Assembly: GCF_011045215.1 (NCBI RefSeq)
Contig: NZ_CP049201.1
Source of the DNA: Escherichia coli
Lineage (GTDB): Bacteria > Pseudomonadota > Gammaproteobacteria > Enterobacterales > Enterobacteriaceae
Strand: one strand, 5' to 3'
Length of the DNA: 64,000 bases
Shown: piece after piece, positions 40,667 to 40,742 of the stretch
Layout: each line of letters begins with the position of its first letter
Numbering within the stretch: position 1 is the first letter of the stretch
Program-made: the position numbers and the translations under genes
The notes under the pieces: model-generated
What the model was told of the DNA's origin: nothing
Databases searched by the model: none
What the model saw: only the letters and a program-made list of their open reading frames with translations

Positions 40667-40742
40667 GCGGGAATAGCTCAGTTGGTAGAGCACGACCTTG
40701 CCAAGGTCGGGGTCGCGAGTTCGAGTCTCGTTTCCCGCTCCA
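40667..40742 (+). tRNA. glyV: tRNA-Gly (GCC), single copy
   Basis: GCGGGAATAGCTCAGTTGGTAGAGCACGACCTTGCCAAGGTCGGGGTCGCGAGTTCGAGTCTCGTTTCCCGCTCCA. Confidence 0.95.

Follow-up and report, generated by a model that had tools for sequence, protein, structure and literature searches.

The closest described counterpart of the locus considered here is the glyVXY operon of Escherichia coli K-12, in which three tandem identical copies of a tRNA-Gly(GCC) gene (glyV, glyX and glyY) lie between orn and queG. Three tRNA-Gly genes are indeed annotated at this position in K-12 J53 and their sequences are identical, in agreement with what an earlier note on this DNA says of K-12. The DnaA-box cluster datA is located downstream of glyVXY and queG, and transcription through it has been suggested to inhibit datA-dependent DnaA-ATP hydrolysis (PMC5742627). 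According to an earlier survey (PMC4539685), every E. coli has an array of three or four copies. Complete deletion of glyVXY is viable, and cells that lose tRNA genes pay a cost in rich media but often gain in poor media (PMC9981150).

The window, by which we mean the whole 64-kb stretch of E. coli DNA that was analyzed, contains exactly one tRNA-Gly(GCC) gene according to ARAGORN, at 40667-40742 (+) between orn and queG; the only other tRNA in these 64 kb is a tRNA-Phe at 11423-11498 (-). A covariance-model search of 40300-41200 (Rfam cmscan, E<=1) also returns one tRNA (RF00005, 69.1 bits, E 7.9e-15), with no incomplete or decayed second copy within that interval, so the single gene reported between orn and the DnaA-box cluster stands. 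Its sequence is that of all three K-12 copies and also that of glyW of strain OHT76-1. The parts of the locus are as follows.

39911..40456, + strand: coding sequence of orn (oligoribonuclease), the upstream neighbor, taken from the list of open reading frames and aligning with orn as annotated in K-12 J53, MC1061 and Xuzhou21.
40554..40576, + strand: A/T-rich tract upstream of the -35 element, by direct reading.
40582..40609, + strand: putative operon promoter, with a -35 element TTGCAG (40582-40587), a 16-bp spacer and a -10 element TATAAT (40604-40609).
40610-40618, + strand: G+C-rich discriminator GCGCCTCCC after the -10 element, by direct reading.
40619..40666, + strand: 5′ leader of the tRNA precursor, identical to the K-12 glyV leader; its start is approximate and set by a putative transcription start.
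40667..40742, + strand: the single tRNA-Gly(GCC) gene (ARAGORN; Rfam RF00005).
40761..41010, no strand: datA DnaA-box cluster, by pattern search and direct reading.
40761-40769, no strand: DnaA box ATATCCACA, one mismatch, by direct reading.
40765..40801, + strand: terminator-like hairpin (40765-40792) with a U-run after it (40793-40801), from RNA folding; identical to the K-12 sequence 3′ of glyY and a putative terminator.
40828-40836, no strand: DnaA box TTATCCACA, by pattern search.
40990-40998, no strand: DnaA box TTATTCACA, by pattern search.
41002-41010, - strand: DnaA box TCATCCACA, one mismatch, by direct reading.
41012..42151, - strand: coding sequence of queG (epoxyqueuosine reductase), the downstream neighbor, convergent with the tRNA operon, from its translation.

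The locus is an ordinary glyVXY operon, that is, a strong promoter of the stable-RNA type and tandem identical tRNA-Gly(GCC) genes, ending just before datA. It lies between orn and queG on the orn strand, an arrangement shared by most of 80 species loci described below, and the exact QueG protein of the window adjoins the tRNA array in many E. coli assemblies. The anticodon GCC and the glyV/X/Y sequence, the leader, the -35/-10 region, the terminator-like hairpin and the downstream DnaA boxes are all as in K-12, with identity unbroken from the -35 element to the tRNA. The difference is one of number: where K-12 has three copies in tandem with 35-36-nt spacers between them, the window has one gene, no spacer and no remnant.

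The promoter had been called a textbook example of the stable-RNA kind, a description that holds for its perfect -10 element, its G+C-rich discriminator and the A/T-rich tract, which may be UP-element-like to judge from the known architecture of stable-RNA promoters. It does not hold for the -35 element, which agrees with the consensus at only 3/6 positions; for this reason a promoter/terminator consensus scan called no promoter upstream of the tRNA-Gly(GCC) gene. Two terminator matches from the same scan are probably incidental, and the region 3′ of the tRNA was folded instead, 40743-40812 giving -14.3 kcal/mol (z = -1.9). The terminator-like hairpin overlaps the first DnaA-box-like 9-mer.

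Directly downstream of the tRNA, and overlapping the 3′ end of queG as in K-12, the DnaA-box cluster with an A/T-rich, IHF-like region amid its boxes has the sequence features expected of datA. In alignment it equals K-12 datA except for one SNP at 40907, where the window has G and K-12 has A. This position lies in the A/T-rich center of datA, two bases past an IHF-consensus-like motif, TAACCTATTGATA (40893-40905), a putative IHF site. The closest relatives of the window also have G at 40907, and the base is therefore a polymorphism of the lineage.

A three-way alignment of the window with K-12 J53 and MC1061 places the difference precisely. Exactly 223 bp of the K-12 J53 sequence are absent from the window, corresponding to tRNA (76), spacer (36), tRNA (76) and spacer (35). 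The deficit thus amounts to two repeat units (112 + 111), is free of any scar and is embedded in otherwise nearly identical flanks, from which the window departs by three SNPs upstream of the promoter and the one in datA. As a result, the orn-queG intergenic region measures 555 bp at one copy vs 667 bp at two and 778 bp at three. The spacers of the full array are AAATTTGAAAAGTGCTGCAAAGCACAGACCACCCAA and AAATTTGAAAGTGCTGTAAGGCACAGACCACCCAA, and its junctions read CGCTCCAAAATTTG and CACCCAAGCGGGAAT. The deposited MC1061 sequence is likewise of the one-copy form and aligns with the window column for column. In some E. coli (about 1783-1903 in locus L013; 744-900 in L003), the spacer between tRNA copies 1 and 2 carries a 121-nt insertion, giving the 157-nt spacers seen in the E371, O111 and OkiPb strains. 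The insertion contains ...gggagcttacaaaagtaagtgactaaggtgag..., which, to judge by ERIC primer sequences, may resemble the ERIC/IRU intergenic repeat.

Among the complete E. coli genomes of RefSeq, those of O157:H7-group strains match the window best, at 99.3% identity over 22 kb. Over 48 kb that are colinear with O157:H7 Xuzhou21, the only length differences besides the tRNA array are a single-base gap at 26602 and a segment at 23328-23472, which is absent from Xuzhou21. That segment (about 145 bp, between yjeJ and epmB) contains two REP/BIME-type palindromic units (gccggatgcggcg... and tgtaggcctgataagcg...). At the other end of the window, positions 1-11422 appear to form a genomic island at the 3′ side of the tRNA-Phe, at the pheU position beside yjdC/dsbD. 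The island holds the following.

781-1569: EAL-domain protein.
1804-2277: fragment resembling the porin UidC.
2997-5549: AIDA-I-type autotransporter.
7042-8622: UvrD-like helicase.
8534-10180: relaxase of the PFGI-1 class of ICEs.
10238-11230: tyrosine recombinase.

Near-identical assemblies were found by exact-protein look-up with the QueG, Nnr and MscM of the window and a shared AmiB variant. Three of them have three tRNA copies at the locus. GCA_910665095.1 differs by 2 mismatches in 13.2 kb and GCA_016672445.1 by 3 in about 7 kb, and GCA_013040085.1 differs over 8.4 kb downstream of the tRNA only at the two SNPs private to the window, with 36 mismatches in 11.4 kb upstream. A fourth, GCA_016674245.1, has two copies, with 3 mismatches in 8.3 kb beside the array and 38 in 13.3 kb once more of the upstream sequence is counted. 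Among the relatives found, the single copy is private to the present assembly, as are two SNPs, one at 44206 (amiB codon 20, A20S) and the other, synonymous, at 42905 in nnr. In the index searched, AmiB A20S is missing from every NCBI assembly and is encoded solely in the Logan assembly of SRR11014969, one contig of which shares 100% identity with the window over 10.8 kb, both private SNPs included. This match points to SRR11014969 as the probable read set of the window strain and suggests that a third party assembled the window from these short reads. Since the variant is confined to that Logan assembly and the window is absent from the RefSeq complete set, it is suggested that the window is a draft assembled from short reads. 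A look-up with the rare Nnr variant of a three-copy strain, aimed at further Logan contigs, returned only NCBI contigs.

The ends of Logan contigs (k=31) were tried as a proxy for read evidence. The SRR11014969 contig (SRR11014969_53, whose bases 1-76 are the tRNA) starts at tRNA base 1, crosses the 3′ end of the tRNA unbroken and runs into datA. Two other runs served as calibration: the contig of ERR3329057, whose NCBI assembly has two copies, starts at tRNA base 49, which is the spacer branch, and that of ERR3329136, which has the SNP pattern of the three-copy GCA_016672445.1, starts at base 47, which is the glyW branch only. In the latter, therefore, the spacer branch was lost in graph simplification. 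The calibration shows that contig ends cannot diagnose copy number, and the end of the SRR11014969 contig was accordingly rejected as a sign that the tRNA-to-spacer junction is absent. Its start at base 1 is itself unexpected, given that the identical glyW, with a different next base, should also create a branch there.

Copy number was then counted in 5,425 complete E. coli genomes with junction-specific queries, long BLAST queries having joined pieces across two-copy arrays. A query composed of the tRNA end, the spacer and the tRNA start reports at least two tandem copies, and this junction was covered in 5,409/5,425 genomes; a 196-nt query (leader, tRNA and downstream sequence) is contiguous only in the one-copy allele. 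The one-copy junction was found, full-length at 99-100% identity, in 14/5,425 genomes (0.26%): HS13-1, 16843, O104:H4 2011C-3493 (NC_018658), six TUM strains, CP148116/119/133, MC1061 (CP195014) and OV2 (CP195020). About 122 genomes have two copies or fewer, leaving about 108 (~2%) with two and about 97.7% with three or more. Some complete genomes contain up to 9 places that match the tRNA. By this count, exceptions to the three-or-four-copy array make up about 2.3% of deposited complete E. coli genomes. One genome, OHT76-1 (NZ_CP135244.1), matched the query solely at its glyW copy (2048170), with no orn-glyVXY-queG match among the matches listed, even though E. coli orn is considered essential. 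The missing match may reflect a deletion, a rearrangement or a misassembly.

The published one-copy calls are isolated among three-copy relatives and are partly associated with batches. Three submitters account for 11 of the 14, namely the six TUM strains, the consecutive records CP148116/119/133, and the Stanford laboratory strains MC1061 and OV2; at least the last two are derivatives of K-12, which itself has three copies. The O104:H4 genomes disagree in a similar manner: 2011C-3493 has one copy vs three each in FDAARGOS_349, C227-11 and HUSEC2011, although all four assemblies, which by their strain names belong to the 2011 outbreak, are 100% identical over a 2.56-kb flank. This suggests that some genomes deposited as complete under-count the glyVXY array. 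Some two-copy alleles, on the other hand, are common to independently assembled sets (O157:H7 Xuzhou21, 143, 2010C-3347 and 2009C-3378; the OkiPb0170x series), and because clonal sets of independent assemblies share them, real contractions do occur and can persist. Unlike the window, the public one-copy alleles reside in other genetic backgrounds, at most 99.1% identical to it over 801 nt, and none belongs to its lineage.

Similar comparisons were made across the Enterobacterales, with the window orn as query and orn-anchored loci from 80 species representatives. Among 58 intact loci, 46 have three copies, five have two, two have one, one has four and four have none. Three copies with an identical tRNA extend from Escherichia to Serratia and Rouxiella, and 172/175 tRNA copies of other species in these 80 loci are identical to that of the window. 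The sequence of 20/80 loci stops at the first tRNA copy or within about 90 nt of it, and contigs L010, L109, L110 and L111 likewise end at the first tRNA. The array is thus a frequent break point of assemblies.

The earlier note had proposed that the deficit is either a contraction by recombination between the repeats or a collapse of tandem repeats in assembly, and the whole-unit, scar-free deficit, together with the fuller arrays of the relatives, leaves exactly these two. Both a change in the number of tandem direct repeats, through unequal recombination or slippage, and the collapse of repeats by an assembler remove whole units without a scar and leave the flanks intact; the window likewise has a whole-unit deficit, a junction inside the repeat and intact flanks. 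Because each process predicts exactly this outcome, the two are inseparable by sequence.

On balance we lean, with limited confidence, toward an assembly collapse of the array over a real, recent deletion. The strain would then carry three copies (or two). In the assembly graph, the identical 76-nt tRNA would form one shared node and the 35/36-nt spacers would form short loops on it; an assembler could walk once from the leader through the tRNA to the downstream sequence and drop the loops as sub-threshold mini-contigs, which would produce exactly the scar-free 223-bp deficit. The window would derive from a short-read assembly, and the reads would still contain the spacers. Collapse is favored because no other assembly of the lineage found here has the one-copy state, because the published one-copy calls are grouped by submitter and conflict with sister assemblies of the same clone, and because their frequency is at most 0.26%, with a part that looks artefactual, at a locus that is hard to assemble and in what is probably a short-read draft. 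The full array in the near-identical GCA_013040085.1, GCA_910665095.1 and GCA_016672445.1, and the trouble that the locus gives assemblers, as in the 20/80 loci that end there, are what a collapse would entail. Against it, short-read drafts of sister strains yielded three copies, so that ordinary data suffice to resolve the array; no collapse to one copy was seen among about 20 sampled E. coli draft loci extending across the array; and the two-copy alleles of independent assembly sets are real contractions.

A real contraction, in which the strain or its laboratory stock very recently lost two of three copies through unequal homologous recombination or replication slippage, has a substantial chance of being the correct account, though one somewhat short of even. 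Perfect direct repeats of 76 bp, 111-112 bp apart, are substrates for both recombination and slippage, and a scar-free deletion of whole units is what such repeats predict. Copy number also varies naturally, with about 108/5,425 genomes at two copies, some of them clonal and independently assembled, and with species representatives that span 0 to 4 copies. Moreover, deletion of the whole operon is tolerated, which makes a one-copy strain biologically plausible, and the frequent benefit of tRNA loss in poor media (PMC9981150) points the same way, while the rarity and isolation of one-copy alleles would fit a recurrent, mildly deleterious mutation. However, the state is confined to one assembly amid near-identical three-copy strains, the natural frequency of 0.26% is an upper limit that includes apparently batch-related calls, and in the O104:H4 outbreak clone, too, a single one-copy assembly stands against three with the full array. 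If the contraction were real, the total dosage of tRNA-Gly(GCC) genes would fall from 4 to 2, counting a glyW elsewhere as expected from other E. coli.

It is far less probable that such a contraction was selected or has a regulatory effect, either because lower tRNA redundancy is favorable under slow growth or because a promoter 223 bp closer alters datA. In poor media, growth and translation output can increase when tRNA redundancy is lost (PMC9981150), and datA, whose DnaA-ATP hydrolysis is suggested to be inhibited by transcription through it, lies directly downstream of glyVXY (PMC5742627). Yet the allele shows no sign of having spread, being present in no relative found; neither the terminator-like hairpin nor any datA box has changed, so that read-through need not differ; and the retention of three copies by about 98% of E. 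coli, as by 46/58 intact species loci, argues for selection in favor of the full array. Finally, the proposal that the lineage never had more than one copy here, for which the single copy itself is the one argument, is refuted by the three-copy arrays of strains 0-3 SNPs away over 7-13 kb and by the identical-tRNA triplets from Escherichia to Serratia and Rouxiella: with three or two copies in its nearest relatives and mostly three in the Enterobacterales, the single copy is derived or artefactual rather than ancestral.

The finding is an ordinary one of a kind already known, a difference in repeat number whose sequence suggests no new mechanism. The survey itself provides a baseline for the locus, in the form of copy-number frequencies across the 5,425 complete E. 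coli genomes and the 58 intact Enterobacterales loci. If the favored collapse is correct, the case illustrates that tRNA gene counts taken from draft assemblies under-report tandem arrays. If the contraction is real, it is a further instance of how unstable tandem identical tRNA genes are known to be, with an allele that already exists in 14 public complete genomes. We consider it most improbable that the strain truly has one copy and that the contraction matters, as a natural isolate in which the dosage of the major glycine tRNA is halved and the strong glyV promoter is 223 bp nearer to the replication-control locus datA; were this so, however, it would offer a natural test both of the costs and benefits of tRNA redundancy and of the effects of transcription on datA.
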